From positions 9,260-73,259 of the forward strand of contig CAMCYE010000007.1 of the NCBI GenBank assembly GCA_945883805.1: DNA of 64,000 nt, in the 5' to 3' direction. A model generated the notes under the pieces. It had not been told where the DNA came from. It saw only the letters and a list, made by a program, of their open reading frames with translations, and ran no database searches. The DNA comes from Victivallis vadensis. GTDB lineage: Bacteria > Verrucomicrobiota > Lentisphaeria > Victivallales > GWF2-50-93. Positions 8,928 through 63,860 of the stretch are shown here, piece after piece (the stretch's first letter is position 1; each line of letters starts with the position of its first letter). A program made the position numbers and the translations under genes.

Positions 8928-9020
8928 AAATCGTTCAGGAAATTTTATTTTGACAGGATTACAGGATAAACTGGATTAAAAAAGAGGTTTGTCAAGTGCG
9001 GAGGGCAAATGCGGATCGGT

Positions 9021-9049
9021 CGGATATTCCGTGTTGGCTATAGGATATT
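9021..9049 (+). repeat. Module G copy: GGATATTCCGTGTTGGCTATAGGATATTC
   Basis: Near-identical to 37382..37410 and 47398..47426 (GGATATTCCGTGTTGGATATTGGATATTC). Confidence 0.8.
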
Positions 9050-9123
9050 CAGTTTTTTCAATCGAGTTACCTGCTTGATCTGAGAAAGAGCTTTTTTTAC
9101 CGGTCCAGAAATTGAGAGGCATC

Positions 9124-31881: not shown

Positions 31882-32021
31882 GATAATCCAAATTGAATAT
31901 CCAATATCCAACACTCAATTTCCAATTTCCATCGGACACTTAACTTGGATATTGGATATTTCCGCCGTGGCGGATTGTATATTGGACATTCTGAGTTGCC
32001 GCTTTTTGCCACCAAGTTGGA
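31882..32021. repeat. Word-stutter hairpin, TCCGCCGTGGCGGA palindrome and degenerate A module (miaA-lspA gap)
   Basis: GAATATCCAATATCCAACA (31895..31913) pairs with TTGGATATTGGATATT (31945..31960). Palindrome at 31961..31974. GAGTTGCCGCTTTTTGCCACCAA at about 31992..32015. Confidence 0.75.
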
Positions 32022-33256: not shown

Positions 33257-33506
33257 TGGATCACCTTCTGTTTAGGTAAAAAAACAATAAGTTTTAAATT
33301 TAGGACCCTAATAAATTACTAATAAATTAGGCGCAGAAACTAACATGGATTTGAGATTAGTCAAGAAAAACAAACTAATTTTATATGGAAAACATTGAGA
33401 AGTCAGATTTTAATTTCCCGTTTTTGATTTATCTGTACTTTCTTTTAAATGCAGTGCATGCATCTTGTCTGTGGACATTAAGGACAATCGATTAAAAAAA
33501 ATAAGG

Positions 33507-34139
33507 ATGAAAATGCTGAAAATAAAAAACGGACAGAAAATTCTATTCATAGGAGACAGTATAACCGACTGCGGAAGAAGCAGGGAAAATCCCGGAGTGC
33601 TCGGAAATGGCTATGCGATGATGACGGCTGCGCGACTTATGGTCAAATATCCGGAACAGAACTTCAGTTTCCTAAACTTTGGACTCTCAGGCAACAGGGT
33701 CAAGGATCTTAAGGCGAGATGGACCGAGGACTGTATCAGGCAAAAACCGGACATCCTCTCCATATTGATAGGGATAAATGATACGTGGAGACACTATGAC
33801 AGCAATGAGCCTACGGAGGCATCGGTTTTTGCAGATGGGCTACGCCATATTCTCAAGCGGACAAAAGAGGAACTTGGCTGTCAGATAATCATACTCGAGC
33901 CATTTGTCCTTCCGGTTCCGGCTGACAGGAAGAAATGGCGTGAAGACTTGGATCCGAAAATCAATGCATCCAGGGAGCTGGCCCTTGAATACGCGGATAC
34001 ATATTTGCCGCTTGACGGGATTTTTGCAGCGGCATCATGCAGGCAGAAACCTGCATACTGGGCGGCAGACGGAGTACATCCTACAATAGCCGGACACATG
34101 CTCATTACAGAGAAGTGGATGGAATGCGCGGGTCTGTAG
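33507..34139 (+). CDS. SGNH/GDSL-family hydrolase
   Basis: 'ILFIGDSITDCGR' (block I), 'GLSGNR' (block II), 'DGVHPT' (block V). ATG at 33507 has an AAGGA RBS; the ORF-track TTG at 33465 is less likely. Confidence 0.7.
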   Translation: MKMLKIKNGQKILFIGDSITDCGRSRENPGVLGNGYAMMTAARLMVKYPEQNFSFLNFGLSGNRVKDLKARWTEDCIRQKPDILSILIGINDTWRHYDSNEPTEASVFADGLRHILKRTKEELGCQIIILEPFVLPVPADRKKWREDLDPKINASRELALEYADTYLPLDGIFAAASCRQKPAYWAADGVHPTIAGHMLITEKWMECAGL

Positions 34140-34231: not shown

Positions 34232-34591
34232 ATGAATGTCAATATTTATAACCTTGAAGAACGTCTTATCGAGTTTGCTTGTGCAATCGTCGAAATTGTT
34301 GGAATGATTCCAAAAAATCTTATTGGAAACCATTTCTCAGGACAACTGATACGTTCAGGCTCTTCGCCGGCCTTGAATTATGCAGAAGCTCAGGATGCTG
34401 AGTCAAAGAATGATTTTATCCATAAAATGAAAATAGTATTGAAGGAGCTGAGTGAGACATATGTCTGTCTTAAGATTATTGACAGAAAAGTGCTTCCAAA
34501 TTCACCAGAAGTCAAAAAAATACTCGTTGAAAACAATGAACTCATCTCCATCTTTGTTAAAAGTGTAGCAACTGCAAGAAAGAAAGATTAG
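34232..34591 (+). CDS. Four-helix-bundle protein (23S rRNA intervening-sequence protein / Avd family, TIGR02436-like)
   Basis: 119 aa. 'LIEFACAIVEIV...GNHFSGQLIRSGSSPALNYAEAQDAESKNDFIHKMKIVLKELSETYVCLKII' is the family signature. Confidence 0.8.
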   Translation: MNVNIYNLEERLIEFACAIVEIVGMIPKNLIGNHFSGQLIRSGSSPALNYAEAQDAESKNDFIHKMKIVLKELSETYVCLKIIDRKVLPNSPEVKKILVENNELISIFVKSVATARKKD

Positions 34592-37222: not shown

Positions 37223-37595
37223 TGGAAGAAGTGCGAAAGTGCGGGGGTTGGGGAGAATTTGAACATCGAACATTCGCCATGGCGGAAACATCCAACATCG
37301 AATTTAGATGACGGGGAGACGTGGCAGGTGATCTGAGGTCAGAAAGAGAATTTAATTCAGGAAAATCCTAACTTGGACATTGGATATTCCGTGTTGGATA
37401 TTGGATATTCAGAGTTGCGGCCCCTGGTTGCCTAATTAAACGCTAAGGAATTTCAAAGTTATTATTAAAAAACTAAAAATAACGCGGCAACAGAGTGCCG
37501 CGGCTACAGCAGTGGATTTATTGTAGCCACGTCACTCTGTTGACGTGCTCTGTTTATTAGAGTTGCGACTTACAGTCGCCTAATTTAAAACATCG
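37223..37595 (+). repeat. Mosaic repeat block between pyrB and pyrC (stutter words, F palindrome, G, A-B junction, C hairpin, A)
   Basis: GAACATCGAACAT-TCGCCATGGCGGA-AACATCCAACATCGAAT (37261..37305). G at 37382..37410. A at 37411..37440 fused to B at 37441..37460. C hairpin at 37484..37547. A at 37559..37590. ATG at 37596. Confidence 0.85.
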
Positions 37596-38903
37596 ATGGG
37601 GCTTCATACCATGAAAACAGATTATATTTTGAAAAACGGACGAGTGATTGATCCCTCCCGCTCCATTGACCGGAAGATGGACATAGGCGTAAGCGACGGG
37701 AAAATAGTCAGCCCTTCAAAAATAAGGGGGGCCAAGGTGATTGACCTTGGCGGACTGGTTGTCGCACCCGGATTTATTGACATGCATGTTCATCTGCGTC
37801 AGCCGGGACGTTCCGACAAGGAATCCATAAAGACTGGTACGATGGCCGCCGCCGCCGGAGGATTCACTTCAATTCTCGCCATGCCAAATACGAGTCCGCT
37901 TTCGGATAATCCCGGGACAATTGAGCTTGTCAAGCGCGCCGCCCAGGAAGACGGAGTGGTCAAGGTTCTGCCTTGCGGGTGCATATCTAAAAATCAGGAA
38001 GGCAAGGAGATGACCGGAATCGGCGGTCTGAAAAAAGCCGGAGTTGTCGCCCTGTCGGATGACGGAAAATGTGTCCAGAACCATGAGCTCATGCGGCATG
38101 TCCTTGAATATTCAAAGTCGTTCGGACTTCCGATTCTCGATCACTGCGAGGATGAAAAGCTTGGCGCAGGCGGAGTCATGCATGAAGGCTATTGGTCGGT
38201 TGTTCTCGGATTGAGGGGAATTCCCGCCGCAACAGAGGAACTGATGGTTGCCCGCGACATAATCCTGGCTGAAATGATCGGATGGAAAATCCATATTCAG
38301 CATGTCAGCACATCTGGAAGTGTCCGTATGATAAAGGATGCCAGAAAAAGAAAGATCCCCGTTTCTGCCGAGGTCACCCCTCACCACATTGCGCTCACGG
38401 ATGAGGAGATAAAACATTTTGACACCAATTATAAGATGAATCCGCCCCTGCGTTCGGAAGATCACCGCAAAGCCCTGATAAGCGGACTCAGGGATGGGAC
38501 GATCACCGTCATCGCCACGGATCATGCGCCACATACGGAAACGGAGAAGCTTGTGGAGTTCGATTACGCGCCTTTCGGGATAATCGGGCTTGAAACTGCA
38601 TTGCCTGTCTGTCTTACAGAACTGTATCACAAAAAATTTCTGACCCTCTCTGAACTTGTTTCAAAGTTCACGGCAGGTCCTGCGGAAGTGCTCGGGCTTC
38701 AGACAGGATTGGCCGAAGGTTCCGTTGCGGATATCACCGTATTGGATCCCGATTTGAAACATAGGATTGATGCTTCCTCATTCTTCTCCAAATCCAGGAA
38801 CACGCCCTTCGACGGATGTGAAGTCCACGGAAAAGCGATGGCAACGATCGTCGACGGAAAATTCGTTTACAGCCTGCTGGACGGGGTAAAAGGGATGATT
38901 TAA
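37596..38903 (+). CDS. pyrC: Dihydroorotase
   Basis: 'PGFIDMHVHLRQPG' and 'ATDHAPH' motifs; 435 aa. The start could be the second ATG at 37611. Confidence 0.85.
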   Translation: MGLHTMKTDYILKNGRVIDPSRSIDRKMDIGVSDGKIVSPSKIRGAKVIDLGGLVVAPGFIDMHVHLRQPGRSDKESIKTGTMAAAAGGFTSILAMPNTSPLSDNPGTIELVKRAAQEDGVVKVLPCGCISKNQEGKEMTGIGGLKKAGVVALSDDGKCVQNHELMRHVLEYSKSFGLPILDHCEDEKLGAGGVMHEGYWSVVLGLRGIPAATEELMVARDIILAEMIGWKIHIQHVSTSGSVRMIKDARKRKIPVSAEVTPHHIALTDEEIKHFDTNYKMNPPLRSEDHRKALISGLRDGTITVIATDHAPHTETEKLVEFDYAPFGIIGLETALPVCLTELYHKKFLTLSELVSKFTAGPAEVLGLQTGLAEGSVADITVLDPDLKHRIDASSFFSKSRNTPFDGCEVHGKAMATIVDGKFVYSLLDGVKGMI

Positions 38904-39100
38904 TCGTATAGGAATTTCAAAGTTGGAACACCGGCATCTTTGTCAGTATTCTTAATTAAAAGAGTATGGTACAGGCGTCTCGCCTGTTTCTATTCTTTCT
39001 TGAAGAACAGGCGAGACGCCTGTACCACATTATGACAGATGCCACTAAGATGGTGGCGTTCCAAAAGAGTTGCGGCCCTTGGCCGCTTAATTTAAATCCG
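38904..39100 (+). repeat. Mosaic element after pyrC: B box, GGAACACC...GGCGTTCC closing stem, 21-bp D hairpin, A module
   Basis: B at 38905..38924. E stem 38925..38932 with 39055..39062. D hairpin TGGTACAGGCGTCTCGCCTGT/ACAGGCGAGACGCCTGTACCA within 38966..39030. A at 39066..39096. Confidence 0.85.
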
Positions 39101-40969: not shown

Positions 40970-41072
40970 TTTTTCCTGTGGAAAAACCATGTCCTCTTTA
41001 AAATTCCAATATATAGATTAAATTCCCGTCCATTGAATTTTTAATTTCTCACTCATAATTCACAATATTCTT

Positions 41073-47286: not shown

Positions 47287-47478
47287 CGGAAAACGAGGCA
47301 CAAAGGCGCAAAGGTGCAGAGGCACAAAGTGAAGAGGGATGGGTAAAGTAACTCGGGCATTCCTGCCCGAGACAGAATCAGCAAGTCCTTAATCATTGGA
47401 TATTCCGTGTTGGATATTGGATATTCGTTTTGCGACTTAGCACTTAAAACTTAACACTTAAAACTGTGAAATAAAACC
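47287..47478 (+). repeat. Mosaic repeat block between lpxA and the aconitase-family gene
   Basis: CACAAAG-type stutter at 47295..47338. Hairpin CTCGGGCA-TTCC-TGCCCGAG at 47352..47371. G at 47398..47426. Degenerate A (GTTTTGCGACTTAGCACTTAAAAC) at about 47427..47450. CACTTAAAAC stutter to about 47470. Confidence 0.75.
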
Positions 47479-49431: not shown

Positions 49432-49951
49432 AGATAGGGCGATTTCTCCGAAAGCACCGCCGGACGGACGGCTATCCCTACCTTGACGTTAAGGAATTTA
49501 AAAGAGATGAACATCCAACATCCAACGTTGAACATCGAACATTGAATTAAAACTCAATTCATTCTAAGTTGGATGTTTCCGCCGTGGCGGATTGAATGTT
49601 CGAAGTTCAGATTATTTAAAAGTTGCGGCCCTTGGCCGCCTAATTCAAGCGTATAGGAAATTGTATTTTAAGGAACGCCGGTCTCCAGACCGGCTTTAAT
49701 GGTAAATGACAAAAGAGCCGAACTGGAGTTCGGCGTTCCATAAAGAGTCCCGGCGGAGCCGGTTAAGTTCACGTTAAGGAATTTCAAAGTTTATGAATAT
49801 TAAGACAGCCTAAAGGCTGGACTCCAAATTTTGGAGTTCACACTTTAGTGTGTCTTTATTTTAAACAAGTTGCGGCCTTTGACCATCTAATTCAATCAGA
49901 ACTCCAGACAGGAATGTCTGGGTTGCTTAAACATATGGGGATTTTTTATTT
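49432..49951 (+). repeat. Array of A-B junction repeats alternating with hairpin inserts (acn-metG gap)
   Basis: Junction units at 49452..49506 (diverged), 49619..49673 and 49744..49791, plus a terminal A at 49866..49897. Insert 1 carries stutter words and TCCGCCGTGGCGGA (49578..49591). Insert 2 is GGAACGCC...GGCGTTCC (49672..49739). Insert 3 has three small hairpins (49806..49852). Confidence 0.85.
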
Positions 49952-56731: not shown

Positions 56732-57010
56732 ATGGCAGGCCATAGGAGCAATAATGTGTGGTATGTATATGTACTTCGTAGTCAAAAAGATGTTAGAACA
56801 TACATCGGCTCAACAAATGACCTGAAGCGCAGATTCAAAGAACATAATTGTGGTCTTGTCATGGCTACGACCCACAGAACTCCTCTCATTCTCGAAGCTT
56901 ATGTTGGCTTCACTGCGTGTTCGATAAGGTTGCGGGGCATGCCTGTTTTCGGGGTTTTGAAGTCAAACCAGAAGTTTACAGGCTTGTCGTGCCCGATCCC
57001 ATGCATGTAA
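56732..57010 (+). CDS. GIY-YIG domain protein, apparently 3'-truncated or diverged
   Basis: 'WYVYVLRSQKDVRTYIGSTNDLKRRFKEHNCG...HRTPLILEAYVGF' matches the first ~60 aa of small GIY-YIG proteins. The usual C-terminal helix is missing. The last 112 nt overlap the convergent radical SAM gene. Confidence 0.5.
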   Translation: MAGHRSNNVWYVYVLRSQKDVRTYIGSTNDLKRRFKEHNCGLVMATTHRTPLILEAYVGFTACSIRLRGMPVFGVLKSNQKFTGLSCPIPCM

Positions 57011-62008: not shown

Positions 62009-62152
62009 AGCGCGGCAACGGAGTGCCACGGCTACAGTCCGGATTTTTTGTAGCCACGGCACTCTGTTGCCGTGATCTTTGATATTTGACTGTGGGAATG
62101 CCTCCGTACTCCCGAACTTCCTTATCTTTAAATTAGGCGGCCAAAGACTTGC
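62009..62152. repeat. C-hairpin copy 2 (plus orientation) and A module (minus orientation) in the deoR/isomerase convergent gap
   Basis: C2 at 62012..62074, GCGGCAACGGAGTGCCACGGCTACAG...TGTAGCCACGGCACTCTGTTGCCGTG, compared with C1 at 37484..37547. On the minus strand 62152..62128 reads GCAAGTCTTTGGCCGCCTAATTTAA. Confidence 0.8.
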
Positions 62153-63659: not shown

Positions 63660-63860
63660 TTATCGGAACGCCAGCACCTTGCTGGCATATGCTTTAATGT
63701 GATACAGGCATCTCGCCTGTTCTTATTCTTCCTTAAAAAACACAGGCGAGACGCCTGTACCACATTCTTTTATCAACCAAGCGGATAAAGATCGCCACAC
63801 AGGATATCCGACAATCCATTAATTCGCCTTCAGTGAATTAATCCAATAATCCACCATCAA
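63660..63860. repeat. E-D composite copy 2 plus AATCCA-word tract
   Basis: GGAACGCC-AGCACCTTGCTGGC from 63666. D2 hairpin at 63699..63765 (compare D1 at 38966..39030; the right arm ACAGGCGAGACGCCTGTACCACAT is identical). GGATATCCGACAATCCATTAATTC...GAATTAATCCAATAATCCACC at 63801..63858. Confidence 0.8.

Follow-up and report, generated by a model that had tools for sequence, protein, structure and literature searches.

Here, we describe module A, a short hairpin repeat that recurs between genes in a 64,000-nucleotide stretch of Victivallis vadensis DNA (assembly GCA_945883805.1, contig CAMCYE010000007.1, positions 9,260 to 73,259 of the forward strand; hereafter the window). Module A is laid out as AAAGTY, a GC-rich stem-loop and then CTAATTTA. 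It is probably the single-stranded DNA (ssDNA) end, of the terIS type, of transposase-less mini-elements of the IS91 rolling-circle type, which are stacked head to tail between genes. The elements are a miniature, array-forming new variant within the known IS91 family, and their hairpin is most likely read by an HUH transposase on ssDNA and not by host RNA machinery. The identity of both ends, the linkage to an IS91-family transposase, the target tetranucleotides, the covariation of the stem, a strand asymmetry and the turnover of the units are all established here.

Most of what is known about IS91-family elements comes from resistance and virulence plasmids. Our results extend the family to a large environmental group, whose tiny ori-ter derivatives appear to shape the intergenic regions of uncultured bacteria. 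They also account for the hypervariability of such spacers between strains, which is relevant to metagenome assembly, and they supply exact end sequences, along with a covariance model, with which such elements could be annotated.

Element ends in relatives

Patterns that leave the stem free are too unspecific for scans of whole collections, as viral contigs illustrate: there, the flank-only pattern gave only single chance matches among those listed. A genome-collection scan seeded on a different repeat module, module D, returned module A in the window's genome and in two Victivallales metagenome-assembled genomes (MAGs) only, among the matches listed. For a scan of metagenomes, only the 3′ flank of module A and its neighbor, module B, were fixed (YTAAKT-N8-AGGAATTTCAAAG) and the hairpin was left free, which yielded at least 120 loci. 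Most of these matches have a hairpin just upstream, in the layout AAAGT[C/T], hairpin, CTAATT, YAAYGYWN, AGGAATTTCAAAG.

The open reading frames (ORFs) of the fetched loci were clustered and their Pfam domains read. A recurrent protein of 400 amino acids (aa) is an IS91-family transposase with Y2_Tnp and Zn_Tnp_IS91 domains, an assignment with which the RefSeq annotation of its plasmid homologues agrees. It is encoded in 8 of the loci, all of which had been selected on module B, and fragments of it occur in two or three more; the transposases of these loci are 38-79% identical to each other. At E<=1e-60 the family comprises 996 proteins, most of them encoded on contigs of ~1.6 kb, and its named members come from MAGs of Planctomycetes, Brocadiaceae, Scalindua, Patescibacteria and Endomicrobiales. 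The A/B element lies antisense, 0-10 nt after a small ORF downstream of the transposase, in L248, L254, L265, L282, L312 and L318 (L numbers denote the loci and contigs compared), and at other distances in L245 and L258. Ahead of the transposase start, we found a hairpin followed by GACTTTT. A conserved Cys-rich ORF of 100-126 aa, with no Pfam match, shares ~25 nt with the 3′ end of the transposase gene in the same six loci and in L338-L353.

The ends of the full-length insertion sequences (ISs) were defined by exact look-up of two transposases, P0106 in 10 places and P0077 in 6. All 16 places have an identical architecture, in which a conserved block begins at TAAATTAG-hairpin-(T)GACTTT and stops at TTGAAATTCCTATACAT, with unrelated flanks outside it. 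In both sets, 8 nt separate the hairpin from the left terminus. There are no terminal inverted repeats, as the left end (TAAATTAGGTCGCC) bears no relation to the right end (TTCCTATACAT), and the flanks of the P0106 copies show no target duplication. Beyond ori, the right flank is CAAG in four contexts, GAAC in one and otherwise a ter-like TAAATTAG-hairpin; in four P0077 copies, the ori end directly adjoins a solitary TAAATTAG-hairpin. The type of hairpin follows the lineage of the IS, GTTGGGTTTT occurring with P0077 and L312 and GTCGCC with P0106.

Comparison of identical IS copies in multiple contexts places the boundaries directly after CTAATTTA at ter and directly before ATGTAT at ori. The same comparison ruled out two other placements, one in which the whole of A plus B is a single IS end flanked by a duplication of AAAGTT, and one in which the element stops exactly between the hairpin and CTAATT. 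The ends of two 1.6-kb contigs, L248 and L282, overlap, consistent with a circle or a tandem copy. When a covariance model is built from solitary copies, its scores for the window copies are 61-63 bits, and it also matches the left ends of the ISs with its ter half and their right ends with its ori half. A more distant relative, an IS on a plasmid of Ca. Megaera with 49% identity in the transposase, likewise carries a GC hairpin at the left terminus and TTTTGAAATTCCTATAC at the right. Judged by these sequences, module A (AAAGTY-hairpin-CTAATTTA) matches terIS, the left end of a large IS91-family group, and module B (ATGTATAGGAATTTCAAAG; ATGTATAGGAATTTCAAAGTT) matches oriIS, the right end of the same group.

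Could the hairpins instead be host repeats resembling repetitive extragenic palindromes (REPs) or bacterial interspersed mosaic elements (BIMEs), merely used as targets by IS91-family elements rather than forming their ends? The four P0077 ori ends beside solitary hairpins would fit such a role, as would the REP-like GTAG hairpins and the doublets resembling REPINs (paired REP hairpins) that the arrays also hold. However, identical IS copies conserve the hairpin as part of their common block, six unrelated left flanks start just outside TAAATTAG, and the type of hairpin follows the lineage of the IS. The array copies never form inverted pairs, and no gene of the REP-associated tyrosine transposase (RAYT) type was seen in a search that was not exhaustive. 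We consider this account quite improbable. Membership of module A in the REP/RAYT system itself was rejected on its AAAGTY and CTAATT flanks, on the lack of inverted pairs and on the linked gene, a Y2 transposase, with the same limit on the RAYT search.

Other identities were also discarded. Irregular spacing, the absence of the defining cores and the linked Y2 transposase speak against a CRISPR repeat, a TnpB/omega-RNA scaffold and the palindrome-associated transposable elements (PATEs) of IS200/IS605. Among the loci selected on module B, L234, L271, L299, L305 and L272 share a family of tyrosine recombinases (Phage_int_SAM_4 plus Phage_integrase), with three tandem copies in L299. Integron attC sites were considered since these recombinases recur, and were rejected because GTTRRRY/RYYYAAC cores are lacking and the copies are irregularly spaced and, in the window, flanked by housekeeping genes.

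Conserved pairing and the folded strand

The window contains seven copies of module A, at or near the coordinates first listed. The initial annotation of this DNA had described a stem whose sequence changes while its pairing is kept; its stem coordinates are all correct, and one decayed copy was missing from its list. On the plus strand, the stems are GCGACT-TAC-AGTCGC (37565-37579), GCGGCC-CTT-GGCCGC (39072-39086 and 49625-49639), GCGGCC-CCT-GGTTGC with two G.T pairs (37417-37431), CCGGC-GGA-GCCGG (49750-49762, subfamily 2) and, in the additional decayed copy, GCGGCC-TTT-GACCAT (49872-49886). On the minus strand lies an inverted, imperfect ATGGCGC-TTT-GGCCAC (1645-1660). Flanks of AGAGTT and CCTAATT had been thought common to all copies; in fact, the 5′ flank reads AGAGTT, AAAGTT, CAAGTT, AGAGTC or AAAATT and the 3′ flank CTAATT, TTAATT or TTAAGT. 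The genes beside the copies are pyrB, pyrC and a GDSL hydrolase gene; other copies lie in the aconitase-metG spacer and 3′ of a Memo-like gene, and the spacers with module A also contain several other repeat modules.

A pattern of the flanks only, ARAGTY-N15-YTAAKT, matches the window four times against 0.18 expected (0/100 shuffles reach four), and the unconstrained N15 holds a 6-bp stem in 4/4 matches. Folded as DNA, four copies reach -5.2 to -7.7 kcal/mol with z from -2.3 to -4.0, among them the hairpins at 37565-37579 (-5.7 kcal/mol, z -3.98) and at 39072 (-7.7 kcal/mol). The minus-strand copy, flanks included, folds otherwise than as a simple stem (-5.0 kcal/mol, z -2.4). The copy with two G.T pairs (37417-37431) folds like its shuffles (-1.7 kcal/mol, z 0.06), and the copy at 49872 has lost its DNA fold.

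In the window alone, covariation rests on three or four types of stem, and it becomes strong once relatives are added. The stems in metagenomes are very diverse and include GCGGCC/GGCCGC, GCTGCC/GGCAGC, GTCGCC/GGTGAC, ACCGCC/GGCGGT and a 10-bp GTTGGGTTTT/AAAACCCAAC. Copies were aligned from Victivallales MAGs and metagenomes, and a covariance model was built from 17 of them, which gave 160 matches at E<0.01 in 567 kb; 150 of these were aligned. Pairing statistics based on anchors only were noisy, the short 5′ anchor often being mis-chosen, and were replaced by a MAFFT alignment and the covariance-model alignment. Across the 150 matches, 92.8% of stem cells are paired, compared with 65.3% in shuffles (0/500 reach this value); double-change cells number 134, compared with 33, both sides change in 6/6 pairs, and controls with the stem slid along the alignment are 21-44% paired. 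The MAFFT-only alignment of the 17 copies, which is not fitted to structure, gives the same picture, with 93.1% of cells paired versus 75.8% in shuffles (0/500), 12 double-change cells versus 3.4, and 22-49% pairing in slid controls. The original observation of a changing sequence with conserved pairing is thus borne out by both alignments.

Its interpretation held in part. Selection on a folded nucleic acid, as opposed to simple repeat decay, is supported by the conserved pairing, and two of the copies in the window are nevertheless decaying. Of the 'compensatory variation', much represents different element lineages and not compensation in place: strains with identical PyrC carry different whole units with their own hairpins. 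As for the proposed alternatives of RNA or ssDNA, one specific strand does fold. There are 22 G.T or T.G cells against 4 A.C or C.A cells (p=5e-4), an asymmetry that identifies one specific strand as the folded one. It is consistent with the strand complementary to tnpA, i.e. the strand that IS91 transposes, and the evidence points to the ssDNA of transposition, not to host RNA. Caution is warranted here, as textbook covariation together with an orientation bias mimics a structured RNA, and covariation alone cannot separate selection on RNA from selection on ssDNA.

Intrastrand template switching or gene conversion is a known mechanism in DNA quasi-palindromes and might maintain the pairing passively, with no functional selection. 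Perfect short palindromes with variable loops are indeed common among the copies. Passive maintenance, however, leaves unexplained the conserved asymmetric flanks, the linkage to a transposase, the strand-specific excess of G.T over A.C and the decay of some copies in the window, and we regard it as highly improbable.

Mini-elements in the window

The window holds six units, W2-W7, and possibly a degenerate seventh, W1. They run from ori to ter over 123-192 nt and lack a transposase. Read along the plus strand, the order is an ATGTAT-type ori (module B), cargo hairpins and AAAGTY-hairpin-CTAATTTA (module A). The units follow one another head to tail in the spacers between genes, so that the composites in which A is followed by B are ter-ori junctions.

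W2 (37440-37587, plus strand, 148 nt) has its ori, ACGCTAAGGAATTTCAAAGTT, at 37440-60 and its ter at 37559-87. The ter consists of AGAGTT (37559-64), the hairpin (37565-79) and CTAATTTA (37580-87); it is matched by the covariance model and has the architecture of an IS91-family left end, whose reverse complement reads TAAATTAG-hairpin-GACTTT. Between the ends, the cargo (module E, ~37481-37551) is a long branched inverted repeat. The ori of W2 abuts the plus-strand ter-type end at 37411-37439, which carries the hairpin with two G.T pairs, and this ter-ori junction scores 62.8 bits. The abutting ter may close the degenerate W1; a start for W1 near 37297 is suggested by the resemblance of ATCGAATTTAGATG to an eroded ori, which is its sole basis.

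W3 (38903-39094, plus strand, 192 nt) has the ori ATCGTATAGGAATTTCAAAGTT, a cargo of module D (38967-39031) and a ter of AGAGTT-GCGGCCCTTGGCCGC-TTAATTTA (39066-94). W4 (49486-49647, plus strand) combines a diverged ori, ACGTTAAGGAATTTAAAAGAG, with a ter of AAAGTT-GCGGCCCTTGGCCGC-CTAATTCA (49619-47), and directly 5′ of its ori stands CTTG, the canonical target of the IS91 family (cf. PMC13181058). W5 follows at once (49648-49770, plus strand, 123 nt), with an ori beginning AGCGTATAGGAAATTG and a ter of AGAGTC-CCGGCGGAGCCGG-TTAAGTTC (49744-70) that belongs to subfamily 2. This subfamily (AGTC-CCGGC..GCCGG-TTAAGT) is explained if TTAAGT is part of ter together with the hairpin, and its ends recur in L229, L269, L330, L260 and L199. 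The junction of W5 with W6 scores 60.8 bits. W6 itself (49771-49894, plus strand, 124 nt) has the ori ACGTTAAGGAATTTCAAAGTT and a decayed ter of CAAGTT-GCGGCCTTTGACCAT-CTAATTCA (49866-49894).

W7 (1637-1764) lies on the minus strand. Its ori is the reverse complement of 1744-1764, its ter is AAAATT-ATGGCGCTTTGGCCAC-CTAATTTA (1666-1637), and its ori half scores 22.5 bits. The ori of W7 shares bases with the stop codon of the Memo-like gene, and in W3 the first base of ori is also the final base of the pyrC stop codon (38901-38924 region); these positions indicate insertions flush against coding ends. A partial ter-type end on the minus strand (62128-62152), with only the 3′ arm GGCCGC and CTAATTTA, is a weak match (17.7 bits, E 0.29) at the 3′ end of an isomerase-like gene.

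Turnover between strains and species

The units differ between close relatives. At the pyrB-pyrC site, contigs L001-L003, which encode an identical PyrC protein and have flanks 99.5% identical to those of the window, carry a different unit, with other cargo and the hairpin GCGGC-AAC-GCCGC ahead of the same CTAATTTAAAACATCG as in W2. Two metagenomic contigs that are 99.3% identical, L250 (3680-3860) and L259 (270-480), share ori and ter and differ in their GTAG...CTAC hairpin cargo, which indicates that cargo is exchanged while the ends stay.

Between species, the window MetG is 84-93% identical to proteins of MAGs labelled Victivallales, Lentisphaeria or Lentisphaerae. In species with 92-93% identical MetG, the acn-metG spacer measures 86 and 134 nt, compared with 520 nt in the window; the spacers are unalignable, and the covariance model has no matches in those of the relatives. 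The acn-metG and post-metG spacers of the sister species contain GTAGGGCGGGC...GCCCGCC REP-like hairpins instead (L354 1414-1500 and 3426-3480; L356 1366-1500). Among the strains and relatives compared, there was no clean filled-versus-empty pair.

Orientation relative to transcription

The modules had also been proposed to follow the direction of transcription of the flanking gene. In the window, every copy points the same way as the gene it follows. Across the larger set, all model matches within a region point one way (0/107 regions of mixed orientation), and where the flanking genes are co-directional, 30/39 regions are co-oriented with them (p=0.001; ~77%) and 9/39 are opposite. Co-orientation is therefore a bias and not a rule.

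This bias is one reason to think of a cis-acting host RNA, such as a terminator, an attenuator, a 3′-end stabilizer or a processing site between co-transcribed genes. The copies sit in 3′ and inter-cistronic spacers, the sense strand tolerates G.T pairs, and a consensus scan flagged 39072-39086 as terminator-like. Against it, these units are absent from sister species and vary between strains with identical genes, two of the seven window hairpins have decayed, and about a quarter of the regions are oppositely oriented. The U-tract is missing, its place being taken by the conserved 3′ flank CTAATTTA. At the gathering threshold, Rfam found two tRNAs only and no family that matches module A, and E-value scans of the repeat regions gave only spurious miRNA-like matches on long inverted repeats. 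The same sequences are, in addition, the physical ends of IS91-family elements, and we judge a host RNA unlikely.

Two kinds of transcription signal were rejected. As an intrinsic terminator, module A lacks the U-tract, and only the TTAATTTAAA variant at 39072 passes a loose scan, on both strands. Judged on sequence only, the spacing is wrong for a sigma-70 promoter (12 nt, varying with the length of the stem) and for a promoter of the Bacteroidetes -33/-7 type.

Proposed mechanism

By analogy with IS91, a Y2 HUH transposase supplied in trans would nick at ori and one strand, complementary to the transposase gene of the full-length elements, would be displaced. Transfer would stop at ter, where a folded single-stranded hairpin beside the cleavage site would be recognized, and new copies would land beside CTTG/GTTC or beside an existing ter-like CTAATTWA. 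A preference for the latter would account for the arrays. The conserved pairing with changing sequence follows if the stem must pair while its sequence is free, with element lineages carrying different stems. The behavior of IS91 is what suggests mobilization of the mini-units in trans, a role of the hairpin as a terminator signal and the predicted positions of the nicks.

Several points count against our reading of module A as an IS91-type end. The left end terminates in TAAA, whereas characterized members are cleaved at CTCG or GTTC. No IS91-family transposase was found on the 86-kb contig, either inside or outside the window, or in ~116 kb of sampled Victivallales MAG DNA; the window copies are accordingly classed as non-autonomous, and a cognate enzyme in the window's own genome is assumed. 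Under strict rules, a recognizable ori lies upstream of only 38/61 ter sites. The differences between strains could have arisen by recombination between shared ends. Finally, the ~77% co-orientation is not predicted by a transposon model alone and leaves room for an RNA-level effect or selection.

More speculatively, the units may represent an undescribed and abundant class of bacterial non-autonomous rolling-circle transposons, the counterpart of non-autonomous Helitrons. By inserting beside their own ter, such elements might build modular intergenic arrays and ferry structured hairpins, including REP-like cargo, between uncultured members of the Planctomycetes-Verrucomicrobia-Chlamydiae (PVC) group and other phyla. 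Their co-orientation might then result from insertion into the displaced non-template strand or from recruitment as RNA-level punctuation. We offer this wider picture as a tentative suggestion.

Other repeats and neighboring genes

Module D, the cargo of W3, occurs a second time at 63700-63766. Module D forms an inverted hairpin doublet, one arm of which is the 20-mer ACAGGCGAGACGCCTGTACC, and hairpins neighboring module D share the loop core GCGTCTCGC and differ in their stems. The module D scan gave at least 91 stretches (L124-L214), and exact ACAGGCGAGACGCCTGTACC is present in MAGs labelled Lentisphaerae, Cloacimonadota, Balneolales, Cyclobacteriaceae, several Planctomycetota, cyanobacteria, Deltaproteobacteria and Chthoniobacterales. 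We found no published mention of the 20-mer in a limited collection of papers. Further repeat families occur at 9018-9050, 37378-37410 and 47394-47426, and also at 31952-31994, 49569-49611 and 37275-37296. Among them are two identical copies of TTGGATATTCCGTGTTGGATATTGGATATTC and a CCGCC-NNN-GGCGG hairpin at gene ends, flanked by GAACATYGAAC / TTGGATRTT quasi-repeats.

The segment 33451-34631 is absent from strain contig L001. It is bordered by GAACATTCGAAC-type quasi-repeats and encodes a GDSL hydrolase (33465-34139) and a four-helix-bundle protein of the 23S_rRNA_IVP family (34232-34591). At 56732-57010, a 92-aa ORF with a GIY-YIG nuclease domain directly follows tRNA-Met and tRNA-Asp genes. 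In another strain, a 126-aa PDDEXK_3 gene lies between alr and a major facilitator superfamily (MFS) gene, where the window has a 103-nt spacer (~40970-41072).

Comparison with known systems

Transposition of IS91 makes no target duplication and uses a target tetranucleotide next to oriIS; a single subterminal palindrome stands beside the terIS cleavage site, circular intermediates contain an ori-ter junction, the bottom-strand circle serves as the substrate and one-ended transposition occurs (PMC13181058). A GC-rich stem-loop at the left end has likewise been described, and miniature right-end fragments of IS801 were mobilized in vivo (PMC3189936). In a limited collection of papers, we found no literature on IS91-derived miniature arrays in PVC bacteria.

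The autonomous elements of the relatives resemble IS91, IS801 and IS1294 in encoding Zn_Tnp_IS91 and Y2_Tnp domains, in lacking terminal inverted repeats and target duplications, and in having CAAG/GAAC by ori and a GC-rich palindrome at ter. They differ in their outer ter, which is TAAATTAG here and CTCG or GTTC there, and in their strong preference for insertion beside existing ter-like sequences. Their hosts are uncultured Planctomycetota, Patescibacteria, Endomicrobiales and Lentisphaerota. The small Cys-rich ORF is downstream of tnpA, whereas orf121 of IS91 is upstream.

REPs, BIMEs and REPINs, which are linked to RAYTs (Y1 HUH enzymes), are likewise small GC-rich extragenic palindromes in mosaic intergenic clusters, and their hairpins are recognized as ssDNA by HUH enzymes, as we propose for module A. 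Module A lacks their GTAG-type 5′ tetranucleotide and inverted doublets, and its linked enzyme is a Y2 transposase of the IS91 family. Module D of the same window, in contrast, looks REPIN-like.

Non-autonomous Helitrons, whose 3′ hairpin acts as a terminator (PMC4778049), share rolling-circle HUH transposition, short conserved termini, a subterminal hairpin conserved more in structure than in sequence, and abundant gene-less derivatives with captured sequence. They depend on RepHel in eukaryotic hosts, compared with a Y2/Zn enzyme in bacteria here, and their hairpin is followed by CTRR, whereas CTAATTTA follows ours, which lies ~8 nt from the terminus.

The miniature IS801 fragments (Bardaji et al. 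2011, PMC3189936) are short and transposase-less, keep ori and are mobilized in trans, as the units here would be. They measure 229-679 nt, end at surrogate tetranucleotides and have no ter stem-loop. The units described here, in contrast, have retained ter as well as ori, with foreign hairpin cargo between the two; they far outnumber full copies and form tandem arrays.

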